This document shows, piece after piece, positions 6,662-25,962 of a stretch of 32,000 bases of DNA. The position numbers were made by a program, and so were the translations under genes. This DNA is from Pirellula staleyi DSM 6068 (lineage in GTDB: Bacteria; Planctomycetota; Planctomycetia; Pirellulales; Pirellulaceae). The DNA lies in NCBI GenBank assembly GCA_000025185.1, contig CP001848.1:3780001-3812000 (forward strand), written 5' to 3'. The notes beneath the pieces were generated by a model. That model did not search any database. It saw only the letters and a program-made list of their open reading frames with translations, and was not told the origin of the DNA. Each line of letters opens with the position of its first letter. The first letter of the stretch is position 1.

Positions 6662-7625
6662 GCGATTGCTCCTCGACTTGCCAAAAGCGATGTCCGGTCC
6701 GGGCAATAAACACATCCTCGAGAGTTGGCTTACCGACGCGAATGCTCTGAATCGATCCTGGGGAGAGTTCTACGAGTCGTGAAACCCATGTATGTCCGTC
6801 CGGAACTTCCAGGCGAACAATGCCATCCATCACCGTAGCGGAGAGTGACAATTGTCGCCGAATCGTGGCGGCTAGTTCGTCGGGGCGAGGAGTTTCCATC
6901 AGCACCGCATCGCCACCCACACTGCGGCAAAGCGCTTCGGGCGTATCGACCCCCATCAGCTTTCCTTGACTCAGGATTGCCACGCGATCGGCGCCGGCAG
7001 CTTCGTCGAGGTAGTGAGTCGTGAGGACCACCGTCACCCGGTGGTTGACGACGAGTGAACGGAGGATTTGCCACAGGTCGCTTCGAGCGCCAGGATCGAG
7101 GCCGGTGCTTGGTTCGTCGAGTAAAAGAATCGTCGGCTGGTGCACCAGTCCCTTGGCGAGTTCTACGCGTCGACGAAGACCGCCCGACAGTTTCTCAACG
7201 AAGTCGTGTTGGCGATCGGTCAGACCAAATTGCTCGAGAACGATGGCAAGGCGTGACTGGAGTGCTACGCCTGTGAGGCCGTAGAGATGTGCCTGATAGC
7301 GAATATTCTCGCCGACAGTTAGTTTGCGATCGACACTCGGCGCTTGGAACACAACGCCGATGTGCGGGCGAATTTCAGCGCTGCTGGTCCGTAGCGAATG
7401 CCCCAAGATTTTGGCATCGCCTGCTTGGGGCCGGATCAGCGTGGAGAGGAGACGAAAGAGGGTCGTCTTGCCGCCACCGTTAGGACCAACGATGGCAAAA
7501 AGTTCGCCACGCTCGATAGTGAGTTGAAGTTGATCGAGCGCAGTTCGTGAGCCGTAGCGGTGTGTCAATCCTTCGACAGCGATCGCCGGACAGGAGTCGG
7601 CTGTCACTGGACGAGAGGCGTTCAT
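6654..7625 (-). CDS. ABC transporter ATP-binding protein (ABC-2/DrrA-like with C-terminal accessory domain)
   Basis: Walker A GPNGGGKTT, Q-loop VFQAPS, signature LSGGLRRRVELA, Walker B ILLLDEPSTGLD, H-loop TTHYLDEA. The ATG at 7625 lies only 5 nt after the subunit IV stop. Confidence 0.9.
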   Translation of the reverse strand: MNASRPVTADSCPAIAVEGLTHRYGSRTALDQLQLTIERGELFAIVGPNGGGKTTLFRLLSTLIRPQAGDAKILGHSLRTSSAEIRPHIGVVFQAPSVDRKLTVGENIRYQAHLYGLTGVALQSRLAIVLEQFGLTDRQHDFVEKLSGGLRRRVELAKGLVHQPTILLLDEPSTGLDPGARSDLWQILRSLVVNHRVTVVLTTHYLDEAAGADRVAILSQGKLMGVDTPEALCRSVGGDAVLMETPRPDELAATIRRQLSLSATVMDGIVRLEVPDGHTWVSRLVELSPGSIQSIRVGKPTLEDVFIARTGHRFWQVEEQSHG

Positions 7626-7630
7626 AAGTG

Positions 7631-8152
7631 TTACGGCTTGGCCTCAGCAGCTTCCGCTGGGGCATCTGTTGCAGGAGTTTCGGTCGCTGGCTTGGCAGCG
7701 TCGTGAGCCTCAGCCTTGTGGTCATGTTCACTAGCGCCATGCTCGCCGCCAGCGTGTTCTTCGTCGTGATGTTCACCCGCGTGATGCGTTTGTTCTTCAG
7801 CGGCGTAGAGCCAGCGTTCTTCCGTGTAGTAGTTTGTGCGGCGAGCGATGTCAGGAATGAGCATCAGTACGAGAAAGAAGCTCATGATCGAAGCCGGAAT
7901 CGTCAGCACATACTTCCAGTTGGCCTCGTACTTCAGGTGCATGAAGAACAAGATGACGAGCGACGCTTTGGCACACGAGACTGCCATCATCATCGCCATC
8001 ATCACGCCCGGAGCGTTCTCGCGGAGTTGCTGCGAGTTGCCAACGGCGAACGAAATGGCAGTGAGAACACACAATGCGACGAACACGGCAACATACTTGC
8101 CAACTCCGCCGGGCACATGCGTGTGGGTGTGACTTCCTGAAGCGTGTCCCAT
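7631..8152 (-). CDS. Cytochrome c oxidase subunit IV family protein (prokaryotic 3-TM type) with a His/Glu-rich C-terminal tail
   Basis: 173 aa. Three TM helices, including the conserved AKASLVILFFMHLKYE block of bacterial subunit IV (CtaF/QoxD-like). Lies directly downstream of subunit III. Tail: HHAGEHHDEEHAGGEHGASEHDHKAEAHD. Confidence 0.75.
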   Translation of the reverse strand: MGHASGSHTHTHVPGGVGKYVAVFVALCVLTAISFAVGNSQQLRENAPGVMMAMMMAVSCAKASLVILFFMHLKYEANWKYVLTIPASIMSFFLVLMLIPDIARRTNYYTEERWLYAAEEQTHHAGEHHDEEHAGGEHGASEHDHKAEAHDAAKPATETPATDAPAEAAEAKP

Positions 8153-8252: not shown

Positions 8253-9713
8253 TTAAAACAGATACAGCATTGGGAACAGGAAGATCCAGACGAGATCGAC
8301 AAAGTGCCAGTAAAGGCCTGTATTCTCGAGGATATGCGCCTTCTTGTTGTCGAGGTGCATTGGCAGGATGAGAGCAAAGGCGAGCAGCCCCACCGCGACG
8401 TGAATCGCATGGAAGCCTGTCATTAAAAAGTAGGTGCTGGCCCACATATTGCCGCTGGGAATCTTCATCGGAAGCATCAGCCAGTGATGTTCGTCGTTCA
8501 GACCATGCTCGGGAGAGCTCATGATCGGAAGGGCAGCAGCACGTACTTCCAAAGCCAGCTTACGAGCTTCTCGAGCCGCTTTCGATTCGCTGATTTTGCC
8601 AGCTTCAATTCGTTTGCTCGTCAGCTCTTCGGTGAGTGTTGCAGTCTCAGCGTCGACAGCCGCAATCTTCTCATTGATTGCTGCAATCTTAGCTTCCAGT
8701 GCGGGGTCGACCTTCGGCTCCTCCGCTGGAACTTCAGCAGCAGGTGCTTCAGCAGCCGGATCCGCAGCGACGAACGATTCGGTCAACGTTTGATTCGACG
8801 ATGTTGCTTCAGGTGCTGGAGCGGGTTGGAGAGCTTCAAGCTCTTTAGCCAGAGCCTCACGTTGCTCGGTGAGCGCTGTTTGTTTCGTTTCGAGCGTGGT
8901 TAGTTCCGTGGTCATGCTGGTCAGCGTTTTGTCGATGCTCGAAATCTCGGCAGCGACCGTTTTACTTTCGGCTTCGGCCAACTGAATTTCTTTTTCAATC
9001 TTCTTCAGGAACAGTTCGCGATCGGCTGGCTTATGATGACGTGGATAGATCGCTTCAGCCATTAGTTCGAGACCGTCGCGACGGACAATCGGATCGTCAT
9101 TCTTAGCCGCTTGGAGTTCAGCCCATTGCAGCATCCCAGATGAAAGGGCATTCACGAGGTTCAGTTTTTCTTGATCTTCCGTCGTGAAGTTCGCTTCCGA
9201 CTCGCTCTTTACTTTCTCGAGCGCGGCACGGTGTTTCGCAAGTTTTTCCCGAACGGCTTGGGCGTAATAAACGTCGGCCTTTTCGTGCAACAAGCTGCGT
9301 GGCAGCGAAGGGTAGATGCCGTGCTTAAACTTCGAGTTGTATTCGACCCCTTTCACGCCCAGGAACAGACAGCCGAGGGCCAGTGTGAGGGCCAGCCAAC
9401 CTTTGGCAATCGTCGGCTGATTGGTTTCAGCAGCGTGATGCGCTAGCACCATCGTGACCGAAGAGCAGAGGAGCACAGCGGTGTTGATCGCGCCGATCCA
9501 TTCCACCAAATGCACATCGTGCGGCAGTGGCCACGATCCGGTCGGAGCACCAAACCGGATGACAACATATGCACCAATGAGGCCGGCGAAAAACATAATT
9601 TCCGTCGACAGGAAGAGCCACAAGCAGAGCTTGCCATTGGCAAGTGGCAGCGCTGGTTGATACTGCAGTTTGAGGTGGCCGTGGCCATGATCGTCGTGGG
9701 CGTGATCGCTCAT
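8253..9713 (-). CDS. ctaE: Cytochrome c oxidase subunit III with an insertion of about 280 aa, predicted coiled coil
   Basis: Start ATG 9713 ([19 protein letters not shown]). Conserved subunit III blocks are [50 protein letters not shown] and [21 protein letters not shown]. The block pair EY...TGFH is separated by about 280 residues instead of a short loop. The track's extra 54 N-terminal codons cover an intergenic hairpin and are rejected. Confidence 0.85.
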
Positions 9714-9837: not shown

Positions 9838-10743
9838 CTACAGCAAAGGAAACACAACAACCACAAGCAACACAAGGGGCAGGTAAATTAGTGTGCCACG
9901 CATCAAGGTGCGGGCGGAAATTTCGTCGCGTCGCCAAGCAAACCACATGGCGAGAGCAAGTTGTATAAGTCCGAGGATCGCGACCACAGCCACTCCAGCA
10001 ACCGCCCAGGGGGTTGGTGTCGAAAGTAGTGGAAGGACACTTACCGGTATCACGGCGATCGCAGCCAGAATCGATTGAATGCCAGCTCGCACACCACTCG
10101 GGTCGACAACGGTGAGCATCTTCATCCCCGCTCGGCCGTACTGTTCCCGGTAAATCCAGGCGATCGCCATGAAGTGTGGAAATTGCCAGAGAAAGAGGGT
10201 CAGGAAGAGAGCCCAGCAGCGCCAATCGAGATCGGCACCAGTCGCTCCCCAGCCAATGATCACAGGCATCGCGCCGGCAACAGCTCCCACCGCAGTGTTT
10301 GTGGGAGAGACAATCTTCAGCGGTGTGTAAATCAGAACGTAAAGAATCCAGGTGAGAGCCCCAGCAATGGTGCTCGTGATTCCTACAGTAAAGATCAGGT
10401 AGGCAATTCCGGCGATCAGCGTGACGGTGATGAAAGTGAGTGCTTCCCACTGCGAAATTCGTCCCGCAACGAGCGGACGCTGCTGGGTCCGCCGCATCCG
10501 CGCATCGCGATGTTGTTCGAGCCAGTGGTTCGACGCACTCGCACTGGCGGCCACCAGAACGGCGCCGATCGAAACGTTGAGCAGTTGCAGTGGATCGGCC
10601 TGGCCGAATGTCGCCACAAAACCAGAAGCGATCACGACAAAGAGCACGAGGGTCGCAATGCGGGGCTTGCAGAGCTCGACGAAATCACGCGCTCGAGCGA
10701 GCGCAGATGGCTGCGAGTCAGCGATAGCAGTCGATGTGCTCAT
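9838..10743 (-). CDS. ctaB: Protohaem IX farnesyltransferase (haem O synthase)
   Basis: 301 aa, UbiA-family polyprenyltransferase. [46 protein letters not shown] and [19 protein letters not shown] match CyoE/CtaB signatures. ATGA overlap with ctaA. Confidence 0.9.
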
Positions 10744-11888
10744 GCGCTGGCTCCTTGGTGAAGCGGAAGATGCGTCTTAGTCGACATCAAGTGGCTGCCG
10801 CTGAAGCTTTGCACCAGCACTCTCGAAGCGAGCAGTGTGACACCGGCCAGCAGTAGCGAACCATTAGCCACATGAGCTGTGGTGATCATCGCCTGCACGA
10901 ATCCTTTTTCGATTACCGTAAAACCGGCTACAGCCCGTTCGGTAGAAAGACCGAGCGAGCTGAAAGCAGCTTCATCGACCAGGATTGTGGGGAAGGCGTA
11001 CTTCACAACGTATGTGGCAACACCAAGACTGATTTGCACAATCACAACAGCAGCGATCAATGTAGCGATGCCTCGAAATGCTCGGGCGACTGCCAGTGAA
11101 CGAAGTTTCCAGACGATCGCCAGTGACTGAATTGCAATCACCAACCCGAGCACAACGTGAATCAGTACTGCTGATTTGAAGTAACCCGCTGTCGCAGTCA
11201 CAGGGACGTGCCTAACCATTGCACCGACAATCATCTGCAAAGCAACAGCAACTGCCAGCGGCAGCACAATGGTTAGTAGCTTCTTTACTTCTGAGCGATC
11301 GGTGGCTGAGGGAGATTTCATCGCAGCGACCAGTTCAGGCGTAAGATTCATCACCACAGTGCCACGAGACTTCACATGCACAGCCGACTCGCGGGTCGCT
11401 GCTTCGATGCGACTCTGGCGAATCCAAAAAGCGAGCGTGCAAACGTAGGCGAAAAATCCAGGTCCGACGCAGCCGTGAACAGTTGCCACCACTCGCTCAT
11501 CGAGCAGCACACGTGCTCCACCAAGTGCACCTTGCATAATGACGAGCACAAGCGCGGCAATGGAGGCTACTCGCAACCACTGTGGCGAGTGGCCAACAAG
11601 TGATGCTGCGACGAGGCCTATTGCGATCATGCCAGCCAAAGCCCCGAGGAGGCGATGACCATGCTCGATAAACAGATCCCAAGGACCATAGAACCAGGTT
11701 TGCCAGGGATACAAAAACATGTTGTATCCATAGGTACCTGGCCAATCGGGAACAGCCATCCCCGCATCGTAGGTCGTCACCAGTCCGCCTACCCAAATCA
11801 ACGGAAACGTGACACTGGCCAGCAGCACGCAGAGAGCGTACGCCAGCAGCGATGGTTTCGCGTCGAATTCAGCAGGGGCAGACTTCAT
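10740..11888 (-). CDS. ctaA: Haem A synthase (COX15/CtaA family)
   Basis: 382 aa, multi-TM. Motifs GGLVTTYDAGMAVPDWPGTYGYNMFLYPW, IEHGHRLLG, HGCVGPGFF and AHVANGSLLL carry the paired-His motifs of CtaA/COX15. Confidence 0.85.
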   Translation of the reverse strand: MKSAPAEFDAKPSLLAYALCVLLASVTFPLIWVGGLVTTYDAGMAVPDWPGTYGYNMFLYPWQTWFYGPWDLFIEHGHRLLGALAGMIAIGLVAASLVGHSPQWLRVASIAALVLVIMQGALGGARVLLDERVVATVHGCVGPGFFAYVCTLAFWIRQSRIEAATRESAVHVKSRGTVVMNLTPELVAAMKSPSATDRSEVKKLLTIVLPLAVAVALQMIVGAMVRHVPVTATAGYFKSAVLIHVVLGLVIAIQSLAIVWKLRSLAVARAFRGIATLIAAVVIVQISLGVATYVVKYAFPTILVDEAAFSSLGLSTERAVAGFTVIEKGFVQAMITTAHVANGSLLLAGVTLLASRVLVQSFSGSHLMSTKTHLPLHQGASA

Positions 11889-11994
11889 GTCAACTCAAAT
11901 GGGGAAATTCAAATCAGTGGCACTCGGAGCGACTGACGGGCAGAAGATCGATCTCTTCCGCCCGCAAGGTTTCCGCTGGTCGAGTGAGGCAGGA

Positions 11995-13800
11995 CTAGTG
12001 ATGCTCGACCTTCACCCGCTTGGCAGGGTCGGCAGGTGGCGGCTGAGTTTGAGGATAAAAGTCGGTATCGACTTCGGGAGATCCGTACTCATAAGGACCA
12101 CGATAAACAACAGGCTGGAAGTCAAAGTTGCCGTGTCCAGGAGGACTTGGCGCCATCCATTCCAGCGAGTTCGCACCCCAAGGGTTACGACCTACGGGAG
12201 TACCGTAGAAAATGCTGCGAATGAAATTGAATGCAAAAATCGCCTGACAGCTCACCATGCCAATGGCACAAATGGTCATGAACTGATTGAGTGGCAGGAG
12301 GTGACGGAAGGTTTCGTATTCGTAGGGATCTGCCAAACGACGTGGGAAACCAACAGCACCCAGGATATGCATCGTGAAAAACGTGCCGTTAAGGAAGATG
12401 AAGGTCAGGAAGAAGTGAACCTTGCCGAGATTCTCGTCCATCATCCGGCCGAACATCTTGGGGAACCAAAAGTAGATCGCTCCAAACACTGCCATCGCTG
12501 TTCCACCAAAGAGAACATAGTGGAAGTGGGCCACGATGAAGTAGGTGTCGTGGATGAAGATATCGACAGGGGTCGCGGCCATGAAGATGCCCGACAGACC
12601 ACCGATCACAAACATCGAGACGAACGACAGCGAGAACAGCATCGGAGTAGTGAACGAGATCTTGCCACCCCAGAGCGTACCGAGCCAGTTGAACACTTTC
12701 ACAGCGCTGGGGAGGGCGATCATCATCGTCGAGACCATGAATGTCATGCCGAGCATTGGATTCATGCCCGAGACGAACATATGGTGACCCCATACGATAA
12801 ATCCGAGGCCTGCAATTCCCGAAATCGAATACACCATCGGTTTGTAGCCGAACAGTGGTTTACGGGAGAAGCAAGCGAGGATGTCCGAGACCATTCCCAT
12901 CGCGGGAAGGATCATGATGTACACAGCAGGGTGCGAGTAGAACCAGAAAAGATGCTGCCACAGAATAGGCTGTCCGCCACCAGTAGCCATCTCCGAGTTG
13001 TTAACCTGCAAGCCTTCCGGCAGGAAGAAGCCGGTACCGATCATCCGATCGGTGAGCTGCATGAAGCCGGCGGCTGTGAGCACAGGAAGTGCAAACGCCT
13101 GCAGAATGGCCGTGATGAACATGCCCCAAATGGTCATGGGGAGGCGGAACATGGTGAGGCCAGGAGCACGCATCTGAATGATGGTGGTCATGTAGTTCAC
13201 CGAACCCATCATCGACGACACACCCACCCAAGTGATGCCGAGGAGCCACAGCGTTTGCGGCCAGTGGCTACCAGGCGCTGCATCCCAGACAACCGACAGA
13301 GGTGGATACGACGTCCAACCACCACCGGCACCATAAGGTGGCCAGAGGAAGCTCATGCCGATGCAGAAAAACGCGGGCCACATGAACCAGTAGCTGAGCA
13401 TGTTGAGTGTAGGGAACGCCATATCATCAGCGCCGATCATCAGCGGGATGAGATAGTTTCCAAATGCGCCAGCGAGAATCGGGATGATCACAAAAAAGAT
13501 CATCACGGTGGCATGCATGGTGAACAGGGTGGTGTAGAACTCCGGCGAGATCTGACCACCTTCCGCCGAGAAGAGCATCCGACCGATGATCGGCATGTCT
13601 GTCCAAGGCCACGCCAGCTGCCAGCGAATCCCCAGGGCGAGCAAACCGCCAACGAGGAACCACAGTAGCGTGGAGAAAAGGAACTGCAAACCAATGATTT
13701 TATGGTCGAGCGAAAAGACGTAAGTCCTTACGAATTCACCGACCGACATGCCTGCATCATGCCCCTTGGCATCATGGGCCCCAATAACTGTTGAGCTCAT
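11995..13800 (-). CDS. ctaD: Cytochrome c oxidase subunit I (haem-copper oxidase, A-type)
   Basis: Canonical HCO blocks: DHKIIGLQFLF, MIFFVIIPILAGAFGNYLIPLMIGADDMAFP, WFYSHPAVYIMILP (CuB His and cross-link Tyr), GFIVWGHHMF, FIHDTYFIVAHFHYVLFGG. Start ATG 13800 (MSSTVIGAH...) overlaps the subunit II stop as ATGA. Confidence 0.95.
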   Translation of the reverse strand: MSSTVIGAHDAKGHDAGMSVGEFVRTYVFSLDHKIIGLQFLFSTLLWFLVGGLLALGIRWQLAWPWTDMPIIGRMLFSAEGGQISPEFYTTLFTMHATVMIFFVIIPILAGAFGNYLIPLMIGADDMAFPTLNMLSYWFMWPAFFCIGMSFLWPPYGAGGGWTSYPPLSVVWDAAPGSHWPQTLWLLGITWVGVSSMMGSVNYMTTIIQMRAPGLTMFRLPMTIWGMFITAILQAFALPVLTAAGFMQLTDRMIGTGFFLPEGLQVNNSEMATGGGQPILWQHLFWFYSHPAVYIMILPAMGMVSDILACFSRKPLFGYKPMVYSISGIAGLGFIVWGHHMFVSGMNPMLGMTFMVSTMMIALPSAVKVFNWLGTLWGGKISFTTPMLFSLSFVSMFVIGGLSGIFMAATPVDIFIHDTYFIVAHFHYVLFGGTAMAVFGAIYFWFPKMFGRMMDENLGKVHFFLTFIFLNGTFFTMHILGAVGFPRRLADPYEYETFRHLLPLNQFMTICAIGMVSCQAIFAFNFIRSIFYGTPVGRNPWGANSLEWMAPSPPGHGNFDFQPVVYRGPYEYGSPEVDTDFYPQTQPPPADPAKRVKVEHH

Positions 13801-14606
13801 TCCCCTTCTCCCGACTCTGCAGTGAATTCTGCAACGTTCTGATCGCGGTATGCTTGAGCGAGCCACTCATCGAAGTCGGCTCGAGATTGAACAGTGATTC
13901 GGCCACGCATTTTGTAGTGACCCCAGCCGCAAAGTTCCGCACAAACGATGTCGTAGACACCGGTCTTGTTGGCCCGGAACCAGACGAATTGCTTCATGCC
14001 CGGAACAACGTCTTGCTTCAGACGAAGGTTGGGGAGGAAGAAGCTGTGGAGCACATCTTGGCTCTTAATAGCTAAAACGATTTCTTCATTCGCAGGGACA
14101 CGTAGTTCGTTAACAGTCAGGACATCGTCGGGGGTACCGACAACTCCATCAGCGCCAGCGTAACGAATCCGCCATTCAAACTGCCGTCCGGTAACTTCAG
14201 CGATGGCTGGCTTGGGGGAACCATCGGCGAGTTGTGGGCGTCGCATCTTGGCATCGGCCCAAGCGTTCATCTGGTAAATAGCGATGAAAAGCAGTGCAGC
14301 AGCCGGAATGATCGACCAGACCACTTCCAGGGTGTGGCTGCCGTGAGTGTATTCGATCGGCTTGGTGTTGGTGGCGACGTCGTACTTCCAGAGGAACCAG
14401 AAGAGCGCAACGCCGGTACCAACGAAAATGATCCCCGTGAGGTAGAGGATGAACATGAAGAGGTTGTCGATCACTTTACCGTGATCGTTGATGTTCTCGG
14501 GTAGCCAATGTCCTTGGAGAGGCCATAGGTCGGCCATCGCCCAGGCAAAGATGCCTACGCCGAGGATCGGAACCATCAAAAAGAACAGGCTCCAAAAACG
14601 TCCCAC
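13797..14606 (-). CDS. ctaC: Cytochrome c oxidase subunit II (CuA type, no fused cytochrome c domain)
   Basis: 269 aa, two N-terminal TM helices. CuA ligand pattern DVLHSFF...CAELCGWGHYKM. No CxxCH is present. GTG start at 14606 with AGGGAG 8 nt upstream. Confidence 0.9.
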   Translation of the reverse strand: MGRFWSLFFLMVPILGVGIFAWAMADLWPLQGHWLPENINDHGKVIDNLFMFILYLTGIIFVGTGVALFWFLWKYDVATNTKPIEYTHGSHTLEVVWSIIPAAALLFIAIYQMNAWADAKMRRPQLADGSPKPAIAEVTGRQFEWRIRYAGADGVVGTPDDVLTVNELRVPANEEIVLAIKSQDVLHSFFLPNLRLKQDVVPGMKQFVWFRANKTGVYDIVCAELCGWGHYKMRGRITVQSRADFDEWLAQAYRDQNVAEFTAESGEGE

Positions 14607-14697
14607 AGCTATACTCCCTACCCAGTCACTGGCGTCGTTTGATGCTTGTATGGTTGGTCACTCACCTCTAGCGAAGGAGCGACTTGATTTCGACTTT

Positions 14698-14715
14698 TGA
14701 ACGCTCGAGCGTTCA
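14698..14715. promoter_or_regulatory. Perfect 18-bp palindrome TGAACGCTCGAGCGTTCA between the dihaem cytochrome c gene and oxidase subunit II
   Basis: Verified base by base; it equals its own reverse complement. It starts 6 nt after the TAG of the cytochrome gene. No U-tract follows on the transcribed (minus) strand, so it is not a canonical intrinsic terminator. The function (RNA stem-loop or operator) is unresolved. Confidence 0.45.
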
Positions 14716-14720
14716 GTTCA

Positions 14721-15977
14721 CTACATTCGCTCGCGGGCGTTGATCGGATCTGCTTGTCGGGGATCACTGATCGATTCGTAAGGGAGCGACTGGACGTAGT
14801 TCACGATGTCCCAGATGTCGTTTTCAGTAAGACCCTTCGAGTTGGCGTCCCCTTCGATTTTCATCGAAGCTGCGGGCATCGGTGTTCCCTCGATCCCATT
14901 GCGAATCCGCCAGTAGATATCGAGGGGACGCATGCCGCCTCGGAAAACTCCTTGACGAAGGTTGCGTGGACGGATGTTGCGAGGTTCGGGAAGTCCCAGA
15001 GCGACATAATCCTGGATGGCAGCTGGATCGCTGGCGTCCATGAACTCTTTAGTCCATTCGTCGTAGTCGGTGAGCTGACCATCTCCCAGGGCCGAATCGC
15101 CGTGGCATTTTGCGCAGTTGGCAACCGCTCCGTAGAACAGTTCGCGACCACGTTTCTGAGACTCAGCTAGTTCAGCTTCGGTGGTTTCGGGGCGTGCACT
15201 GACAGGGGCTGATGTGAGCGATTCAGCCGAGGTTGCCCATGCGCTAACGATATCGGTGACAATCGTTTTCACGGCGTCGATCTGTTCGACGGCAGCAGCA
15301 CGCTCTTCAGCCGAAGACTTCTCGCCGGGTACGCTCACGAGGCGAGCATCAGGTTCGAGGTCGGCAGCATATTCCAGCAGTTTACGCTCCGTCTCGCCTC
15401 GAATGGCTAAGTACTTCACGTAGTGCACCAGCGATTCCACTTCCTGATCGGTGAGGAGCTTGAACGATGGCATGGCCGTTCCCGGAATACCTTCGAGCAA
15501 GATCTTCTTCAGGTCGTCGTGGGTAGGCTTGGTGCCCACCTTCGTCGATTTGAACTTGAACCACCCTTTGCGATAGTCGCGTGGGTAGGGGTTGAGGAAC
15601 GCAGCTGTTGGGCCCGCGCCGTCGCCGGTGACACCGTGGCAATGGGCGCAGTGTTCGCGGTAAAGACCTTCAGGGCGATTGAGTTCGTCGCTACCCACCT
15701 TGCCTGCCGACATTTTCAGCAGCGGCAAATTCATGACGGTTGCTGGATCGACATCCGCCAGTGCAGGGAGCGCTGGATCATCAGGCGTGCCGAAGAACGC
15801 CGCGAGTGTCAGGTCGATATCAGCCCGCTGTTCTTCTTTGAACTCGACTTCCTTCGCTTTTTCGACCTTCAAGGCATAGGTCTCATAGCGACGGAACTGC
15901 GGAGCGGGTGATCCGCAACCGGCGAAGGCAAAAGCCAACATCAGGCTGGCAGCGATACTAAGGCGCGTGGCACTCAT
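14721..15977 (-). CDS. Dihaem c-type cytochrome lipoprotein (CcoP/FixP-like class I domains)
   Basis: 418 aa. Lipoprotein-type signal ending AFAFAGC. Two CxxCH motifs: CAHCH (nt 15636-15650) and CAKCH (nt 15102-15116). Each is followed by a distal Met block (GIPGTAMPSF; GIEGTPMPAA). Confidence 0.85.
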   Translation of the reverse strand: MSATRLSIAASLMLAFAFAGCGSPAPQFRRYETYALKVEKAKEVEFKEEQRADIDLTLAAFFGTPDDPALPALADVDPATVMNLPLLKMSAGKVGSDELNRPEGLYREHCAHCHGVTGDGAGPTAAFLNPYPRDYRKGWFKFKSTKVGTKPTHDDLKKILLEGIPGTAMPSFKLLTDQEVESLVHYVKYLAIRGETERKLLEYAADLEPDARLVSVPGEKSSAEERAAAVEQIDAVKTIVTDIVSAWATSAESLTSAPVSARPETTEAELAESQKRGRELFYGAVANCAKCHGDSALGDGQLTDYDEWTKEFMDASDPAAIQDYVALGLPEPRNIRPRNLRQGVFRGGMRPLDIYWRIRNGIEGTPMPAASMKIEGDANSKGLTENDIWDIVNYVQSLPYESISDPRQADPINARERM

Positions 15978-18467: not shown

Positions 18468-21400
18468 TTACTCAGCCGGTGCTGGAGCCGGCGTTGCTTC
18501 GATCGGAGCCACAGGCTGTTCTCCCGGAGGAGCTTCACCGGCAGGTGGCGCCGCACCACTGGCAGCTTCGACGAGCGGCGAAATCTTCGCCGCACCCTTC
18601 GTGTAGCGATCGTAATTCATCAGCAAGTCGACCAGACCATCCACTTGATCCACACTCGTACCGTGGTAGAGGTTTTGCGAAACACCACCGTCGAACTTCA
18701 CGTTCGGGTTGTACGGAATGTTCACCGGCATCGAAGTGTATGGCAGGATTGACTTCGGATTCGCAATCCAGCGTCGCAGGTAATCGGGACGGAGGCGGCG
18801 ATAGACGTCGGCAAGATTAGGAGCTCGTGCTCGCTGCGAACCGACAGGGCTGAAGTCGGCAACGATGTGACACTTCACGCAGTAGTTCTTGTCGACCACG
18901 ATCTTCATGGCATCATCAAATCGCGTCGAAGCTGGCAGACCTTCCTTCTGCAGGAGCTCGGCATACTTGGCTTCGGCTGAGGCGAGGAGATCGTCGTTTC
19001 GCGACTCGGTGGCAACGTACGGATAGGTAGCATTGTCGCGAGCTGCAAAGTAGTTCACCAAAGCCGTCGCTTCGTCGTCCGACATGTTGAACTTCGGCAT
19101 GCGGAGGAACGAGGCTGGGCGAATCGGATAGGGCTCGAGCAAGAAGTCGTGCAACCATCCAGTTTGGACCTTGTTGCCTTCTCCCATCAGTGGCGGTGGT
19201 AGCCAGCCCATCGCTTCTGCACCGGATGCAGAAGGGTTGGCTTGCTGTTCGTAAGCAGTCACCTTCGGCAGCAGGTAACGCGTCAGGGCGCCACCATTGG
19301 CCGGATAGCTACTTTCGACCCGAGCAAACGGAATCTGAACCGATGATCCACCGGTTTGGTAGGTCGAGCCATCAATCATCGCTGGTTGGTAGAGATCGAT
19401 AGAGTAGGAGACCGTGCGAGGATCGAATTCATCCTCGTTCGTCACCCCCACACCATCCATATCAATCACGATCGGCAGACCATCGTCCTTGGCGGTCGGA
19501 GGTAGACCCTTCACCTTGCTGGTGAGCAAGTTGCGCGAATCGGGCTTAGCCTGGGCTTCCAGTTCCTTGGTGCCGAAGTGAGCCTTCAGGAACGGGAAGT
19601 CCTTGAATTCACCTTGCGGGCCGTAGTCGCCAGCAGCGTAGGCAATATTCCAGGTTTCTGCTTCCAGAATATGGCAGCCACCGCAGTTGTACTTCTCGAG
19701 GACTTGCTGACCCTTGATGAGCGCTTCTTTGCGTGCATCGGGTGTGAAGATGTACTTCTCACGTGGAGGATCGGCAACCAACCCTAGGACAAACGTCATG
19801 ATCGCTTCCCGTTCCTCGACTGAAATCGGGAACAGAGGCATGCGAAGCCGTTCGTTGTACTTCTTATTGATCGTTTTCTGGAAGTCGTAGCTGCGTGGTT
19901 CCTTCAGCTTCTGATGAATGAAGCCGATGCGGTTATGCGCTTCAAGTTGGTGGAGATAAAACTCTTCATCTGCTTCACTACCGGCAGGACCAGACGAACT
20001 TGGCCAATTGTGGGCGTGCGAGTGATCACCCTCTGCATGGGCATCATGCGCGGCATCGGCCTTCAAGCTCGTATTGGTCGTGGCAACGGATGGAGCAGGA
20101 GTTTCTTCCTTGGCTTTCGGCTTGTGGCTTGGGCCGTGGTGCTCGAGGTAGTGCGTGATATGTTCGAAGGCGAGCTTCGAAGGATCTTTACGACCCCAGT
20201 CGGCCAGACCGGTTCCGATCGGCTTCGCATCTTCGAAGCCTGGGATGTCGTGGCAGCCGTAGCAGCCGTACTTCGAAATCGTCTTCATGCCGACATAGCG
20301 AAGCTTGTCTTTGTCGGTCAGCTTGCCACCATCGCGAACGATCAGTTCCTTCTCAGCACCCTTGAGTTCGCTTTCGATCTCGGCTGGGATGCCGTTCTGC
20401 AAGTATTCCTCGGCCTGATCTTTGTAGAAGGCATCGAGCAGATAGTCCTTCACATGCTCGTCGAGAGCTTGCTTGTTCTCTTTGGTAAGCGTGGTATCGG
20501 TGATACTCCCTTCAGCTACTGGCGTCCAATTTTCGAGCTTATTGGAGAGCAGGTAGGCTGTGATGTCATCAACAGGATCGAAAACCTTTCCTGCTGCATC
20601 CTTTTCAGGAGTCAGGTAGAGGTTAGGCATCACGGTGCGAACGTGATACTTCGTCGGTTCCTTGATCCAGCTGTAGAGCCACTCGCGACCTTGCGGATTG
20701 CGAGCGGGATCAAACTTGCTGCCGATGCCGGTCAGATCGGGACCTTGAACGATCTCACCTGGCTTCCGGTATTTCTCGATCGTGGGGAAGTCGCCGTGAT
20801 TGTGGCAGGCCAAGCAACCACGCACTTCGAACTGCTGTTTACCACGAGCAATCTTCTCTTCGTCGCTCCACTCACTGATCCCTTCGGGGCGGGGGAGTGG
20901 CTCGAACTCTTGATCGAAGGCCGAGAAATATTCCATCATGCCGAGAATTTCGATCGGCTCACGTACTTGAGCCATGTGATCGTCGGCATCGAGATGATCC
21001 CACAACTGGAAGAAGCGAGGCATGCGCGTACTGGGTCGGAATGCTTGTGGGTTCCAGAGCCAGTCGTACAGGAACGGACGATCGAGTTTGGCGCCGAGGT
21101 ATCGCAAGCTGGGGCCTGATTTGCGGAGGTCGCCAGGAGCTTCAATATCCTTCAGCATGCCCGCCAGCGTGTGAATCTCGGCGGGGAAGAGTGGCGTTTG
21201 GCTAACGGCATCTTCTTCGATCATCAGACGCAGGCGTGTACGTACTTCGTTGTCTTCGGGGTGGTGCACCACGTGATCGGTCGACTTGGCCAGTTCTTGA
21301 AGCTGGGCAAGTTCACCAGCAGCGGTGTTCTTGGCTGATGTGACCTCAGCCGGAGGTTCGCCAGCGGCGCTGGCGGTGTCGAAGGCAGTCGCGGCAGCGT

Positions 21401-23438
21401 TAAATTTCTCTTTAGCAGCAGCGAGCGGAGCCTTGATGTATGGCTGCATCGACTGGGCAACGGCAAAGTAGCCAGGTTCAAGACGCATGTCGGGACCAAC
21501 CCGGCGGGTGGGGCCGTCGTAGCCATTCACTTCGTGACAGCCGTAACAGCCGTACTTGCGAATGACGTGGTAACCGTGCACGAGCGAAGGTGCTGGTGGA
21601 TCGGGAAATCGCTCGCTCGCTTCGAGTTCGACCACTTCGTGGTGGCACTTGAGGCAGGAGGCTTCGGCAAATCGCTTGGGGAACATTGGATAAATCCAAT
21701 GGGCGTTGTCGAACCAGCCGTACTCGTTCATCCAACGTTCGGCGTCGAGGCTGTTGTTGGGGGTGTGCGACGCCCATTTGAAATCGGTGGCCGAGCCTTG
21801 GCCGTCGTGGCAGACGGTGCAAGCAAACGTAGAAAGCTTGTGCGGGCTGGAGTCGCTTACGAACAGGTCGAGGCGTGGGTGCGACGTGAACGGACTGGGA
21901 AGACCACGGCGAATCGTGACAGTGATCGGTTTACCCGAATTCGAGGCGTCGATCAGGTAAGATTCCGCACGACGCGCATCCAGGATGCGATCGCCGTTAA
22001 TCGCCTGAATCACATCTCCCAGCACGATACCGGGGAGATTCTTGAACAGTTCAACGCTTTCTTTGCTGCCGGGACCGATCGCGGCGGCGACACGGATATC
22101 TTCACCGAGCTTATCGCCGGTTGGTTCATTACCCACGGTAACAGCACGAGCTGCGGCCGACTTGGGCTTCACGAACTTCACGGTCACATCGTCGCGATTG
22201 ATCAGACCTTCCGCAGCGAGGCGAATACCGAGGTATTGCTCGAGCGTGTAAGGGAGCGGGTTACCTTCCGCATCGGTCTTCGGTGGGCCAAGTTCTTCGG
22301 GCGTCGGAGGGGTGATGACCAGATCGAAGGTCGTTTCCTTCACGAATGCTTGAGTGGTTGGCATGCCGGGGACCGACTTGGCCATCGATTGATGGCAAGT
22401 GGTGCAGCGGTCGTAGCGCTTGACCTTCTTGAAGTTGTAGTCTTGCTCGAGCCCTTCGCTCCATGCGGTCTCGATTTTACGAGGCGAACCGAAGGCATCG
22501 ATGATGGGAAACGTCAGAACCTTTTTGCCCAGGAAGGGGAAGGTTCCCACGAAGTAGGTTTCACGCTTTTCCGCGTAGGTCTTTTCTAGGCGAACGAGAC
22601 CAGCTCGGCTGTCGTCGAGTTTCTTCTGTGCGGCAGCAATGTCGGCGGTCATCGCCTTGATGGTGCCGTCGAGATTGGCGCGGTGGGTCGAGAGGGTTTG
22701 AGTGGCTTCGCGGAGCGCGTCACGTTCAGCTTCAAGCTTGCGGACGGTCTCGAGTGCCGTTTTCATCGTTGCGGCATTGTTGTCGCGAACGGCAATGTCG
22801 TAGTTGGCTTTCGCAGCATCGAGGAAGCCGTTCTTCCCCTTTTGATTGGTGGCAGCCTGGGTTTCGCGAATTTTAGCGCTGCGAGCATAACCCTCGAATT
22901 CGACAATCAAAGCGGCGCGAGCATCACCCGCCTGCTTTTCAGCAGCGAGGGCGGCAGCTTGGGCCTTCGCCGCAGCTTGCTGGGCAGCTACGTCGCTAGG
23001 AGCAGCTTCCGCCTCTTTAATGGCGGCAGTGGCAGCTTCTCGCAGCGGAACTGCGGCTTCGACGAGTTTTTTGATTTCGGCAGCTTCGGCATCAATCCAG
23101 GCAACATCGACGGTCGTCTTGCGATAAGCGGCGTCGTTTTCGAGTTCCGCTTTGAACTGTTCGATGAGCGCTGCAGGGATCTCTGTGGCAGAGACGCGCG
23201 ACAATTCCTCTTCCAGGTTCGCGTGTTCTTCCATGGCGTCGGCAGTTTCGAACTGCTCTTGCCGCCAAGCATTCAGTTTCAGATCGGCTTCGAGTGCCTT
23301 GGGTTGCACATGTTTCCAAGGCCGATCGTGGTCTCGATAGAACATCAAGACGGTAACGATTGCCAAGATAACGCCGGAAACCGCAAATAAGCGATTCAGC
23401 AAACCTTGATCACGCCAAGTTGATTCCGTTGCGGGCAT
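18468..23438 (-). CDS. Membrane-anchored octahaem c-type cytochrome (1656 aa) with an N-terminal coiled coil and a PDZ-like insert; likely the c-type subunit of the adjacent Rieske/cyt b complex
   Basis: Eight CxxCH motifs verified by back-translation: CTTCH 22392-22406, CTVCH 21807-21821, CLKCH 21642-21656, CYGCH 21534-21548, CLACH 20802-20816, CYGCH 20250-20264, CGGCH 19671-19685, CVKCH 18867-18881. One N-terminal TM (LFAVSGVILAIVTVLMF). Heptad-like Ala/Glu/Lys-rich region at aa 45-295. PDZ-like segment NLPGIVLGDVIQAINGDRILD...ITVTIRRG. Five class-I-like modules have W..P....MP distal-Met blocks. ATG with GGAG upstream. Confidence 0.9.
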   Translation of the reverse strand: MPATESTWRDQGLLNRLFAVSGVILAIVTVLMFYRDHDRPWKHVQPKALEADLKLNAWRQEQFETADAMEEHANLEEELSRVSATEIPAALIEQFKAELENDAAYRKTTVDVAWIDAEAAEIKKLVEAAVPLREAATAAIKEAEAAPSDVAAQQAAAKAQAAALAAEKQAGDARAALIVEFEGYARSAKIRETQAATNQKGKNGFLDAAKANYDIAVRDNNAATMKTALETVRKLEAERDALREATQTLSTHRANLDGTIKAMTADIAAAQKKLDDSRAGLVRLEKTYAEKRETYFVGTFPFLGKKVLTFPIIDAFGSPRKIETAWSEGLEQDYNFKKVKRYDRCTTCHQSMAKSVPGMPTTQAFVKETTFDLVITPPTPEELGPPKTDAEGNPLPYTLEQYLGIRLAAEGLINRDDVTVKFVKPKSAAARAVTVGNEPTGDKLGEDIRVAAAIGPGSKESVELFKNLPGIVLGDVIQAINGDRILDARRAESYLIDASNSGKPITVTIRRGLPSPFTSHPRLDLFVSDSSPHKLSTFACTVCHDGQGSATDFKWASHTPNNSLDAERWMNEYGWFDNAHWIYPMFPKRFAEASCLKCHHEVVELEASERFPDPPAPSLVHGYHVIRKYGCYGCHEVNGYDGPTRRVGPDMRLEPGYFAVAQSMQPYIKAPLAAAKEKFNAAATAFDTASAAGEPPAEVTSAKNTAAGELAQLQELAKSTDHVVHHPEDNEVRTRLRLMIEEDAVSQTPLFPAEIHTLAGMLKDIEAPGDLRKSGPSLRYLGAKLDRPFLYDWLWNPQAFRPSTRMPRFFQLWDHLDADDHMAQVREPIEILGMMEYFSAFDQEFEPLPRPEGISEWSDEEKIARGKQQFEVRGCLACHNHGDFPTIEKYRKPGEIVQGPDLTGIGSKFDPARNPQGREWLYSWIKEPTKYHVRTVMPNLYLTPEKDAAGKVFDPVDDITAYLLSNKLENWTPVAEGSITDTTLTKENKQALDEHVKDYLLDAFYKDQAEEYLQNGIPAEIESELKGAEKELIVRDGGKLTDKDKLRYVGMKTISKYGCYGCHDIPGFEDAKPIGTGLADWGRKDPSKLAFEHITHYLEHHGPSHKPKAKEETPAPSVATTNTSLKADAAHDAHAEGDHSHAHNWPSSSGPAGSEADEEFYLHQLEAHNRIGFIHQKLKEPRSYDFQKTINKKYNERLRMPLFPISVEEREAIMTFVLGLVADPPREKYIFTPDARKEALIKGQQVLEKYNCGGCHILEAETWNIAYAAGDYGPQGEFKDFPFLKAHFGTKELEAQAKPDSRNLLTSKVKGLPPTAKDDGLPIVIDMDGVGVTNEDEFDPRTVSYSIDLYQPAMIDGSTYQTGGSSVQIPFARVESSYPANGGALTRYLLPKVTAYEQQANPSASGAEAMGWLPPPLMGEGNKVQTGWLHDFLLEPYPIRPASFLRMPKFNMSDDEATALVNYFAARDNATYPYVATESRNDDLLASAEAKYAELLQKEGLPASTRFDDAMKIVVDKNYCVKCHIVADFSPVGSQRARAPNLADVYRRLRPDYLRRWIANPKSILPYTSMPVNIPYNPNVKFDGGVSQNLYHGTSVDQVDGLVDLLMNYDRYTKGAAKISPLVEAASGAAPPAGEAPPGEQPVAPIEATPAPAPAE

Positions 23439-23538
23439 TGCATCCGTCTCCGCGAGCGAGGCACTGTTTTGCGAGATCCCAGGGGTTCAATCACCCCCTG
23501 ATCGTCGCGACTACTGACCAGCCACAATCACTCGAGGC

Positions 23539-24921
23539 TTAAAAGTTGAGTACGTATTCAGGTAAATCGATGAAGTATTTCAGGTTAAACAGCCAGCGGC
23601 AGACCATCTTCAGAGGAAGTAGGCCCATCCACAGGAGCAAGTTGGTCATCACCATGTAGCGAATGAATCCCATCTTCATGAACATGTTCTGGAACATCTT
23701 CGAGCAGACCACCAGGGCTGGTGGAATGACGGCAAAGTATCCAATCAGCAGCATGATGCCGGGGAATTCTCGGAGCATGGCATAGATGAGTTTGATTCCG
23801 AAACTGGCCCCTTCAGGAGCGAGTGGGCGATGGCTTCGCAGCGCATCGATCCAGAAGAACTCCGACAGATTTTTATTGTTGAGGGCTTCGACTTTGTGGG
23901 TGTCCCAAATTTCATAGGGACCGAAGAAGTTCCAGTTCGGACCGCGAAGGAATGTTCCCATCACGATCAGCGTGATCCAGAGGACCAGGAAGCCAAACTG
24001 GAAGGTGATGTAAGCGAACTTCCGTTCTTCGATCGTGTAGTAGCCGTTGCCAGCTTTGTTGTAGTCGATGTAGGGAATGGCCATCAGACCAGCCACCACC
24101 ATGCTTGGGAGGACCACGCCTGCCATCCACGGATCATAGTACACCAGCATCTCTTGCAGACCGAGGAAGTACCAAGGGGCCTTCGAGGGGTTGGGGGTTT
24201 TCACAGCCGAGGCTGGTTCTTCGAGGGGCGCTTGGAGCGAGATGGCCCAGAAGAGCATGAACGCAGTGAGGGCGACCATGCAAATCAGTTCGGTGTAAAC
24301 CAGATCGGGCCAGACGAGCACTTTCTCGCTATCGAGCTTCTCGAGGGGTTCGAGACCTTGCTTGCGACGTTCGTCGTTGATCACAGCTCGGTAGGCGCTA
24401 AGCCAGGTGAAGAACGCGAGCAAGAAGATCAAACCGACGATCGGCACGTTATCGGGCTTCACCACGATCGAGGCAAAGTTTTGGTCGGTGAGCGACATAC
24501 CAAGCAGCAGCATGGAGAGGTTCAGCCCGGTCCAAGCGACGGCAGGTTGCACGAAGAATTTGCGACCGACAAACAGGACCGAAAGGAAAGCGAGCGAACC
24601 CAGCGTGTAGAACGTCGGGTTCATCAGGCTGTTGATGGTGGCGCGAACTGCCATCGGGAGAGAAATGATCTGCATCCATTTCTCATCGCCGCTAAACGCG
24701 AGGGGCGAGAGGAACAGGAAGAAAATCGAAACGCAAAGCCAAATGAGTTCCGCACCGAACGGCATTTCGATAATCGGAACTTTGCCGATCACTTTGGTCT
24801 TGTTCGACTTCCACAGGATGAAAGCAGCAATGCCGTTGATCACCGCAATCAGCAGATAGTACGACCCCAAGAAGCCGGAGATCTGCTTCAAGAAGATGTC
24901 ATAGGGAACGTGGCCGTGCAT
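23539..24921 (-). CDS. Cytochrome b C-terminal domain / b6f subunit-IV-like protein, extended to 460 aa by extra TM helices at both ends
   Basis: The core VWPDLVYTELICMVALTAFMLFWAISLQAPLEEPASAVKTPNPSKAPWYFLGLQEMLVYY aligns to the PetD / cyt b helix E-ef loop region including the Qo PEWY position (here APWY, nt 24169-24180). About 190 aa of additional hydrophobic N-terminal sequence and about 160 aa of C-terminal sequence flank it. Confidence 0.85.
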   Translation of the reverse strand: MHGHVPYDIFLKQISGFLGSYYLLIAVINGIAAFILWKSNKTKVIGKVPIIEMPFGAELIWLCVSIFFLFLSPLAFSGDEKWMQIISLPMAVRATINSLMNPTFYTLGSLAFLSVLFVGRKFFVQPAVAWTGLNLSMLLLGMSLTDQNFASIVVKPDNVPIVGLIFLLAFFTWLSAYRAVINDERRKQGLEPLEKLDSEKVLVWPDLVYTELICMVALTAFMLFWAISLQAPLEEPASAVKTPNPSKAPWYFLGLQEMLVYYDPWMAGVVLPSMVVAGLMAIPYIDYNKAGNGYYTIEERKFAYITFQFGFLVLWITLIVMGTFLRGPNWNFFGPYEIWDTHKVEALNNKNLSEFFWIDALRSHRPLAPEGASFGIKLIYAMLREFPGIMLLIGYFAVIPPALVVCSKMFQNMFMKMGFIRYMVMTNLLLWMGLLPLKMVCRWLFNLKYFIDLPEYVLNF

Positions 24922-24997
24922 CGCTACTGCTCTATCCGTGAGAAAACAAGTTGGAGGTCAAAATCGAGCTGCCAAGCATCAACAAAACACTCTCGAT

Positions 24998-25774
24998 TTA
25001 GAGAGGTCCGCTGATACCACCGTCTTTACGAACACGCCAGAAGTGGATGGCCAAGAGCAGCGAAACTGCCAGTGGAATGGCCACACAGTGGAGCACGTAG
25101 AAGCGGTTCAACGTCTCTTCACCCACAAAGCGGGCACCGAGCAAACCAAATCGAGCATCGGATGCGTTGGTGATCATCGCGATGCCGTCGATATTTAAGA
25201 ACTGAGCACCGGGACCTTCGTAACCAAGGATCGGTGTCGCGCGAGCCATGTTCGAACCGACGGTGATGGCCCATACCGCCAATTGATCCCACGGGAGCAA
25301 GTAGCCGGTGAACGACATCAGCAGCGTGAGCAAGAGCAAGACGACACCGACCACCCAGTTGAATTCTCGCGGCGGTTTGTAGCTGCCGGTGAGGAACACG
25401 CGATACATGTGGAGCCAGACGGTGATCACCATGGCGTGAGCACCCCAGCGATGAAGTTCGCGGAGAATGCCCATCGAGGTGACATCGCGAAGAGCCAGGA
25501 TGTCGTTGTACGCCCATTCGATCACGGGACGGTAGTAGAACATCAACAAAACGCCGGTGACCGTTTCGACCAGAAACAGGAAGAAGGTCACGCCACCCAT
25601 GCACCACGTGAAGCTGAGGGCGATCCCTTGCTTCTTGATCGAGACGGGGTGGAGATGGAGGAAGAAGTTGGTGAGCATCACCACAATGCGATTGCGGCGA
25701 TCGACCGGCATCGGGTGCCGGAAAATGCTCTTCCAAATCTGTGATTCGCGAATGATTTCGCTGAGCGATGCCAT
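24998..25774 (-). CDS. Cytochrome b6-like protein (cytochrome b N-terminal, four-helix haem-binding domain)
   Basis: 258 aa. Paired haem-ligand His blocks: [21 protein letters not shown] (helix B) and [28 protein letters not shown] (helix D). Conserved [16 protein letters not shown]. Confidence 0.9.
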
Positions 25775-25962
25775 GACTTTTAAGGGCCTTCCCTGCGGAC
25801 TTAATTTACAAGCGACAAAGGCAACTACTGACTTCGTCGATTCTGGTTAACTCAAAAAACGCTAGTTTGGAAGTTTCTGAGCCCAGCTTGCTGGCTGAAC
25901 TCAGTTACCGCAGCACTTGCAGAATCGCGGGTGCTGCAGGAGTCTCTCGCAGTTTAGGTGGA

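Follow-up and report, generated by a model that had tools for sequence, protein, structure and literature searches.

A predicted periplasmic insertion with a variable-length coiled-coil hairpin in the short-form oxidase subunit III of Pirellula staleyi

The window analysed here is a stretch of 32,000 nucleotides from Pirellula staleyi DSM 6068 (contig CP001848.1 of assembly GCA_000025185.1, positions 3,780,001 to 3,812,000), and it carries a long cluster of respiratory genes. Our subject is one of these genes, the cox3 gene for subunit III of a haem-copper oxidase, and more precisely a stretch of 288 residues that separates its two conserved membrane blocks. We found that this insertion is built in two tiers, namely a helical base, conserved and some 115 residues in size, and, nested within it, a predicted hairpin of variable length with an acidic, flexible tip. 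The features of the gene and of its surroundings are collected in Table 1, in coordinates of the window.

Table 1. Features of the cox3 gene and of the neighbouring respiratory genes (aa, amino acids; TM, transmembrane; ORF, open reading frame; AF2, AlphaFold2; pLDDT, predicted local distance difference test).
Feature	Position	Strand	Evidence
Subunit III gene, ctaE/coxIII-like, 486 aa plus stop	8253..9713	-	ORF, Pfam COX3, colinearity with solved chains
N-terminal membrane core, aa 1-133: His-rich N-terminus and TM helices A-C	9315..9713	-	7q21_E alignment, AF2, hydrophobic windows
Whole insertion, aa 134-421, 288 aa	8451..9314	-	gap between aligned blocks (PDB, Pfam)
Base, N-terminal part, aa 134-228	9030..9314	-	AF2, block mean pLDDT 88-98 over aa 141-228
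Hairpin arm 1, aa 229-295, one 67-residue helix	8829..9029	-	AF2, heptads
Tip linker, aa 296-336, Pro/Ala/Glu-rich, predicted disordered	8706..8828	-	pLDDT < 50 over aa 304-329
Degenerate tip motif FVAADP, aa 314-319	8757..8774	-	fails the strict pattern
Hairpin arm 2, aa 337-399, one 63-residue helix	8517..8705	-	AF2, heptads
Base, C-terminal part, aa 400-421, (E)HGLN motif leading back to the membrane	8451..8516	-	conservation, AF2
C-terminal membrane core, aa 422-486, TM helices D-E	8256..8450	-	matches 7q21_E 136-203 and bovine subunit III 185-257
Subunit IV (COX4_pro), directly downstream	7631..8152	-	Pfam PF03626, 54 bits
ABC ATPase, ABC-2 permease, SCO1/SenC and DUF420, after coxIV	4527-7625	-	Pfam
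Dihaem cytochrome c, coxII, coxI, ctaA and ctaB, upstream	9838..15977	-	Pfam
Dihaem cytochrome c	14721-15977	-	lipobox-like LAFAFAGC after signal sequence
Two paralogous secreted/lipoprotein-like proteins	16309-17316 and 17400-18332	-	no Pfam or NCBIfam match
Rieske, cytochrome b, subunit-IV-like protein and 1656-aa multihaem cytochrome c (bc-type complex)	18468..27054	-	Pfam
Membrane-anchored multihaem cytochrome c, 1656 aa, eight CxxCH	18468-23438	-	Pfam, motifs
Multihaem cytochrome, N-terminal 296 aa: predicted anchor and all-helical module (~260 residues)	22551-23438	-	AF2

Both conserved blocks of subunit III, together with the two Glu/Lys/Ala/Thr-rich helical stretches between them, lie within one unbroken ORF. 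Its start codon is the ATG at 9713 (MSDHAHDD...), where all homologues begin, sharing MSDH or MADH; a longer ORF of 540 residues opening at a TTG (9875) was rejected as a mechanical over-extension that overlaps the end of ctaB. The Pfam family COX3 (PF00510) matches the product in two pieces at 70.1 bits against a cut-off of 23.8, which places the protein in the family, and a phmmer search of the PDB matched 32 solved subunit III chains at E <= 0.01. The best-matching chains are those of the five-helix actinobacterial CtaE (E = 3e-20), and none in the PDB is closer. Residues 33-133 align with 31-131, and residues 422-485 with 136-203, of the 205-residue CtaE of C. glutamicum (7q21_E). AF2 predicts five membrane helices, those of the N-terminal core being 27-53, 71-96 and 100-130, and helices I-II of the seven-helix form are absent. 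On these alignments, we assign the gene product to the five-helix, short-form (CtaE-like) subunit III of aa3-type haem-copper oxidases. The actinobacterial CtaE model NF050119 is the best NCBIfam match, but it scores 115 bits against a cut-off of 190, and the window protein is thus related to that family without belonging to it. The C-terminal membrane core is identical to that of the closest relative (P0002) in all 65 of 65 residues. At the other end of the protein, the His-rich start derives partly from a 15-bp tandem repeat of 1.9 copies (9680-9708), and H11 and H13 are kept in relatives.

The original prediction, made from the sequence without database searches, placed an interruption of about 280 residues at 8466-9308 and held that a short loop is normal at this site. 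The gaps in the Pfam and PDB alignments agree on an insertion between the two blocks and measure it at 288 residues, at a site that holds 4 residues in solved CtaE (7q21_E). The span first proposed corresponds to aa 136-416, inside the limits that we obtained, and the flanking blocks and the helical stretches had been quoted correctly. The insertion has a net charge of -15 and contains no Cys. For comparison we used the best 120 homologues among thousands of subunit III relatives from a collection of 5.8 billion proteins; they are 40-71% identical to the window protein and derive from independent isolate genomes, metagenome-assembled genomes (MAGs) and metagenomes, complete genomes included. 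All 120 are continuous ORFs with 173-385 residues at the insertion site, and all are annotated plainly as 'cytochrome c oxidase subunit 3'.

These homologues bear directly on whether the insertion might be an artefact or a selfish element. A pair of genes mis-joined by assembly or by a frameshift, an outcome that had been named as refuting the original prediction, is excluded by the continuous ORF found here and in the 120 independently assembled relatives. Each half alone would also be an incomplete subunit III, which speaks against two joined genes. An intein or a mobile element was rejected as well, given the lack of Cys, of matches to intein or transposase families and of flanking repeats. 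The sole hint in favour of an explanation of this kind is the lower third-position GC of the insertion (0.53, versus 0.68-0.72 in the cores); the explanation is refuted by the comparative data, and we regard it as extremely improbable. Nor is the insertion a catalogued domain. Scanning it against Pfam at E values up to 1 returned sub-threshold generic coiled-coil families only (best E = 0.019), the NCBIfam scan gave nothing beyond spurious SMC-like matches, and Foldseek found no match in the PDB at E <= 0.001. In the literature, full texts included, we found neither a description of the insertion nor a function for it, and the work of Degli Esposti (2014) on COX3 architecture is silent on it. 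The earlier statement that no described function is known for such an appendage agrees with these searches of the literature, Pfam, NCBIfam and solved structures.

In bovine subunit III, the region from residue 185 is the intermembrane-space loop that precedes helix VI, and the V-VI loop lies on the P (periplasmic) side of the membrane. Helices III-VII of the seven-helix form are those retained in the five-helix form, the N-terminus of which lies on the N side. In the phmmer alignment, residues 415-484 of the window protein match residues 185-257 of the bovine chain 1occ_C, so that the insertion replaces the loop aligned to the start of bovine helix VI. Across the 120 homologues, the density of Lys plus Arg is 0.144, 0.188 and 0.188 in the predicted N-side segments versus 0.005 in the short loop predicted on the P side. 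This positive-inside bias and the homology to bovine and actinobacterial chains agree, and both predict that the insertion lies on the periplasmic side, as had been proposed, in the loop between helices three and four (the V-VI loop of the longer form).

The structure of the insertion was modelled with AF2 on the 120-sequence alignment (mean pLDDT 81.9; predicted template modelling score 0.73), and the means of ten-residue blocks reach 85-98 over nearly all of its helical parts. The hairpin accounts for about 170 of the 288 residues, and the base is made up of the first ~95 and the last ~22. The N-terminal part of the base opens with the invariant motif HGIYP..P.S and is predicted to form helices 148-171, 178-204 and 208-222. 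Its invariant or near-invariant residues are P135, P138, S140, D147, Y149, Y150, V154, R155, W197, E199, A219, Y223 and P224. In the C-terminal part, G404, L414, P415, I418, P419 and G421 are invariant in 120 of 120 homologues, with S420 in the same conserved stretch. The model joins the two parts through a beta-bridge between residues 142-143 and 416-417. The base is present in every Pirellulales copy, even where the insertion measures 112-154 residues. With respect to the closest relative, 66 of 90 residues of the base are identical, as are 29 of 67 and 33 of 63 in the two arms of the hairpin. One homologue (P0092, 540 aa) carries within an extra segment of the base, at residues ~170-230, a match to EF-hand_6 (26.5 bits; cut-off 25), which would amount to a periplasmic calcium site. 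In several relatives, loops rich in His and Gly adjoin the HGLN motif.

Unlike the base, the hairpin is the dispensable and length-variable part of the insertion. Each arm would be about 10 nm long if straight, at 1.5 Å per residue. Arm 1 keeps its heptad register without a break for 65 residues (aa 231-295), and arm 2 does so through aa 337-360. Among the 120 homologues, 64-67% of the cells at positions a and d hold V, I, L, M or F, compared with 3-7% elsewhere, so that chance falls far short of explaining the helical, coiled-coil character. The sequence of the arms is poorly conserved while the heptad pattern is kept, and R391 in arm 2 is nearly invariant. Arm lengths, taken from counts of alignment columns, co-vary across the homologues with r = 0.83, a correlation among related sequences that is not phylogenetically independent; such co-variation is what an antiparallel hairpin would show. 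Boundaries based on proline were unusable, as many homologues have prolines inside arm 2. Arm length and base length do not co-vary (r = 0.17). The net charge of the hairpin is -12 in the window protein, negative in 98% of the homologues and -8.7 on average. An origin of the hairpin by internal duplication was rejected, the two arms being dissimilar (E = 13) and the insertion containing no tandem repeat at the DNA level. The original prediction had read this region as two long heptad-bearing helices joined by an Ala/Pro/Glu linker, had suggested an antiparallel hairpin, and had named disorder as the contrary outcome. The model returns two such helices and a linker of low pLDDT, the high pLDDT together with the template modelling score of 0.73 would imply that the helices pack on each other, the co-variation of the arms supports the antiparallel arrangement, and the block pLDDT of 85-98 over most of the arms, together with the conserved heptads, favours a coiled coil over disorder.

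At the far end of the hairpin, the columns of the tip linker are of low occupancy and low conservation. Within this otherwise unconserved linker, rich in Pro, Ala, Glu and Thr, 58 of the 120 homologues carry the motif F-V-A-[LV]-Q-[DE]-[QA]-[PQ]-P, and all 58 have insertions of 231-367 residues. Val occupies its position in 58 of 58 and Gln in 54 of 58, though the pattern permitted alternatives, and the unconstrained next position is Asp or Glu in 44 of 58. The corresponding residues of the window protein are degenerate, as are those in the closest relative (PVAFDP), while the cox3 product of Anatilimnocola (P0020 and P0024) has the canonical tip FVALQD. Conserved short motifs within disordered tips usually mark contacts mediated by peptides, and from the sequence we infer that this may be the role of the motif.

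To place the insertion among bacteria, we took the 80 best loci with one genome per GTDB species, and the loop could be measured in 79 of them. Pirellulales-type loci have insertions of 112-220 residues in this sample, and up to 385 among the 120 homologues. Loci with enlarged loops that the hidden Markov model (HMM) of the Pirellulales insertion does not match are L003, L016, L018-L020, L025, L064 and L073. The insertions of Planctomycetaceae, 136-207 residues long, are not recognised by this HMM. A Gemmataceae MAG has an insertion of 301 residues, rich in Lys and Ala, with DPELAK-like repeats and a net charge of +8. The loop measures 93 residues in a Phycisphaerales MAG and 15 in an Isosphaeraceae MAG. 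In Acidobacteriota, Gemmatimonadota, Verrucomicrobiota, Actinomycetes, Bacteroidota and others it is usually 4 residues long, often 11-47 and once 82 (an Acidobacteria MAG), and the 4-residue form, found in 24 of the 79 loci, is spread over many phyla. Many Acidobacteriota share a loop of 16-26 residues with the pattern 'VPGxxFxF'. Three records titled as Chitinophaga sp. (L013) or archaea (L043 and L068) are contigs with cox3 genes of planctomycete or bacterial type, and their taxon labels probably reflect mis-binning of the MAG records. The mapping called for with the original prediction thus finds this type of insertion in Pirellulales only, with 4-47 residues at the site in most other phyla.

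HMMs of the whole insertion or of the base alone match Pirellulales-type loci only and miss the insertions of Planctomycetaceae and Gemmataceae. These profiles thus give no support for homology between these insertions and that of Pirellulales, and the sequence type of the insertion appears confined to Pirellulales. The cox3 genes themselves are orthologues, as shown by the ctaA-ctaB-cox3-coxIV(-ABC) order that is kept across Planctomycetia. Judged by these profiles, the enlarged loops would represent either several independent enlargements or one old insertion that has diverged beyond recognition. The shortest Pirellulales insertions (112-154 residues) are essentially the base alone, which makes the hairpin a nested addition. 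We also searched the base (aa 134-232) exhaustively against 1.84 billion representative sequences with phmmer, a single-sequence search of limited sensitivity, and obtained 62 matches. Of these, 61 lie in cox3-like proteins, at the site of the insertion, or are fragments of such proteins; the exception is a 527-residue protein (P0133) with five short matched stretches. Within the reach of this search, no stand-alone or donor protein for the base was seen.

The genes around cox3 are transcribed from the same strand in the order Rieske protein, cytochrome b, subunit-IV-like protein, multihaem cytochrome, two secreted paralogues, dihaem cytochrome c, coxII, coxI, ctaA, ctaB, cox3, coxIV, ABC transporter, SCO1 and DUF420; ctaA and ctaB (Pfam UbiA) serve haem A biosynthesis. 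This order recurs in metagenome contigs, and the loci that span it in full (13, including the window) all have both the multihaem gene and a cox3 insertion. The part of the cluster that runs from the secreted paralogues to cox3 and beyond accompanies hairpin-less cox3 genes (P0031 and P0055) as well as the longest one (P0115). A link between the hairpin and a particular gene neighbourhood was rejected on this evidence, these three sharing one operon type, and the absence of the hairpin from the same operon suggests that it is accessory and not catalytic. The N-terminal module of the multihaem cytochrome is modelled with two long helices at 150-218 (69 residues) and 222-296 (75 residues), with pLDDT above 90 and lengths close to those of the cox3 arms. 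Among 20 metagenome loci the module varies from 281 to 441 residues; for the module fragments P0122 and P0125, cox3 was not reached within the 10-kb flank.

The remaining neighbours add several observations. Each of the two secreted paralogues contains C-S-I-H-x-W-M, that is, a C-x2-H-x2-M spacing, which we take to be the ligand spacing of amicyanin-type blue copper sites, and these proteins may be uncharacterised cupredoxin-like electron carriers. The calculated isoelectric point (pI) is 9.05 for one of the two, 5.1 for the dihaem cytochrome c and 5.5 for the multihaem cytochrome. Given its lipobox-like sequence, the dihaem cytochrome c is probably lipid-anchored rather than soluble. Its orthologue at locus L083 has an insertion of about 90 residues between the two haem domains. 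Subunit IV is His-rich, with GSHTHTH near its N-terminus and the C-terminal tail THHAGEHHDEEHAGGEHGASEHDHKAEAHD. The ABC ATPase follows coxIV in every relative with a long enough flank, and the contig of P0115 diverges after it; the permease, SCO1 and DUF420 were seen, among the relatives, only in the contig of P0055. The ABC pair may be part of oxidase biogenesis.

What the stalk, that is, the hairpin with its tip, does in the cell is a matter of weighing. We give the first rank, tentatively and at somewhat less than even odds, to the reading that it is a periplasmic arm for protein contact or tethering within the co-encoded bc-aa3 respiratory assembly. The stalk would then stand outside catalysis and act in the periplasm. 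The base, which is always present and has invariant residues, would probably cap subunit III in a fixed position on its periplasmic face and serve as a docking surface on the P side. The hairpin would hold the tip motif up to ~10 nm away, where a partner might be captured. The most plausible partner would be a periplasmic component of the co-encoded bc-type complex with its electron carriers, and the 1656-residue multihaem cytochrome is a candidate. The degenerate tip of the window protein could mean that the contact is weaker here, or that the stalk itself makes it. In both bacterial supercomplexes of this type with a solved structure, the partner complex makes contact with five-helix subunit III, whose variation has been connected to differences in partner (PMC8361435). 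It is this contact face, together with the bc complex on the same strand, the long-helix module of the cytochrome and the tip motif, that leads us to rank a contact arm first. Several results weigh against it. The analysis found no partner for the stalk. The arms retain 13-19 identical residues of 60-67 aligned at about 50% overall identity. The tip motif is missing from about half of the relatives as well as being degenerate in the window protein. The length of the cox3 insertion does not co-vary significantly with that of the multihaem module, in a comparison of low power and uncorrected for phylogeny (r = 0.22, p = 0.47, n = 13). Finally, within one operon type the hairpin ranges from almost nothing to about twice its length in the window protein, and for this reason it cannot be an obligatory, precisely fitted interface.

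A more specific version of the contact role, which we think unlikely, makes the stalk a dedicated tether whose tip binds one particular partner, and explains the enlarged loops in three orders of Planctomycetia as convergent adaptation to their cell plan. The partner could then be the helical module or the haem domains of the multihaem cytochrome, or a protein associated with the wall. The arm on subunit III would link the oxidase into a supercomplex or fix its place in the periplasm, which in Planctomycetia is enlarged and bounded by an invaginated membrane. The same cell plan can be invoked for a passive role, in which a rigid acidic rod of 10 nm acts as a steric ruler. Such a rod would set a minimum distance between the P face of the membrane and the wall, the outer membrane or an invaginated sheet of cytoplasmic membrane, keep a layer open for electron carriers and need no partner at all. 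This would fit the finding that only physical traits are conserved in the hairpin (heptads, negative charge, matched arms) while its length is free, and the fact that other orders of Planctomycetia have also enlarged this loop, by sequence of no detectable relationship, could mean pressure from the cell plan. However, a spacer leaves the conserved tip motif and the conserved residues of the base unexplained, hairpin-less relatives have the same operon, and the Gemmataceae insertion is basic; we consider a mere spacer doubtful. Equally doubtful, in our judgement, is that the coiled coil has simply grown and shrunk neutrally in a permissive loop, with the base perhaps stabilising the subunit. 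The loop is indeed a hot spot, with 4 to 385 residues across phyla, repeated loss or shortening of the hairpin has left the neighbouring genes unchanged, and the arms are poorly conserved. On the other hand, the heptad core and the matched arms have been maintained over hundreds of diverged sequences, the tip motif is conserved, the acidity is consistent, and some 170 extra residues have to be exported and maintained on an abundant protein. These facts speak for purifying selection, if only on the fold. Taken together, a spacer and a neutral expansion agree with the poor conservation and the free length, but accommodate the tip motif and the maintained heptads less well.

Two further explanations appeal to the surface of the rod, and both seem to us quite improbable. 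The hairpins of at least two oxidases might pack into four-helix bundles and so dimerise the enzyme or arrange it in arrays; long antiparallel hairpins often pair, and the weak Foldseek neighbours of the insertion (ClyA-family toxins, F-BAR, SMC-/Rad50-like arms) oligomerise. These neighbours are insignificant, with a best E of 0.024 and template modelling scores (TM-scores) of no more than 0.3 outside cox3 chains. Moreover, the monomer model is already confident, the charge of the hairpin disfavours packing against itself, and there is no conserved surface stripe. Slightly less probable still is that the acidic rod works as an electrostatic antenna that concentrates Ca2+, Cu, protons or basic electron donors near the oxidase, by analogy with the acidic hinge protein of mitochondrial complex III. 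The nearly constant negative charge of the hairpin, the basic pI of one neighbouring cupredoxin-like protein, the EF-hand in the base of P0092 and the His/Gly-rich loops beside HGLN in several relatives would suit this idea. However, most of the neighbouring redox proteins are acidic, mild acidity is common in bacterial proteins, and the charged residues of the hairpin are not conserved in position.

Altogether, comparative data and modelling depict a real and lineage-specific appendage, predicted to be well folded, on the P side of a subunit that is otherwise known for having none. Subunit III is among the most conservative parts of the haem-copper oxidases, and its solved matches consist almost entirely of membrane helices and short loops. 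An exported domain of about 290 residues, predicted to be folded and to carry a 10-nm rod, is therefore unexpected on it. The insertion occurs throughout an environmentally abundant bacterial order and draws attention to a loop that underwent repeated enlargement in Planctomycetia. Should the stalk indeed be a contact arm, it would offer a handle on the organisation of the aa3 oxidase and of the unusual planctomycete bc-multihaem complex, as well as on the layout of respiration in cells with an enlarged, invaginated periplasm. Hairpin-less natural variants, the tip motif and genetically tractable relatives make this reading testable. If it is a dedicated tether, it would imply a respiratory chain organised in a manner that no solved system shows. 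Even as a tolerated expansion, it would illustrate, in a clear case from nature, how large an addition a core subunit of the respiratory chain can bear.

The closest known relatives of the window protein are the actinobacterial CtaE chains (7q21_E, 6adq_G and 8hcr_G). They have the same five-helix form, both membrane blocks are colinear, and they are likewise encoded near a bc-type complex, with which CtaE forms the contact between complexes III and IV in the solved supercomplex. They differ in having a 4-residue loop in place of the 288 residues found here, and their partner bc complex has QcrC where that of the window has the 1656-residue multihaem cytochrome. Subunit III of the Flavobacterium johnsoniae ACIII-aa3 assembly also has five helices, without helices 1-2, and forms the docking face for the quinol-oxidising complex (PMC8361435). 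Its partner is alternative complex III, whereas that of the window is a Rieske/cytochrome b complex, and the review makes no mention of a large P-side domain on the F. johnsoniae subunit (PMC8361435). The seven-helix subunit III of bovine, Paracoccus and Rhodobacter oxidases (1occ_C, 1qle_C and 1m56_C) is homologous over its last five helices. It has essentially no extramembrane domain, with a V-VI loop of a few residues, whereas in the window protein helices I-II are missing and that loop holds the domain of 288 residues.

Outside subunit III, the top Foldseek neighbours other than cox3 chains are ClyA-family toxins (AhlC, MakA, XaxA/B and NheA) and F-BAR proteins, which share the shape of an elongated bundle. 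With E values of 0.05-0.4 and TM-scores of at most 0.34, these matches are insignificant and reflect generic resemblance, not homology. The adaptors AcrA, MacA and EmrA extend two-stranded antiparallel coiled-coil hairpins of variable length from a complex of the inner membrane into the periplasm and make contact through the tip, and some members of these families are hairpin-less. They are the nearest analogue that we can name for the stalk of the window protein, and the analogy is one of function only. The adaptors have lipoyl and beta-barrel domains, which the window protein is without, and the Pfam families of such hairpins all remained below threshold. Unlike theirs, the hairpin described here is a loop insertion in a polytopic subunit of the respiratory chain.

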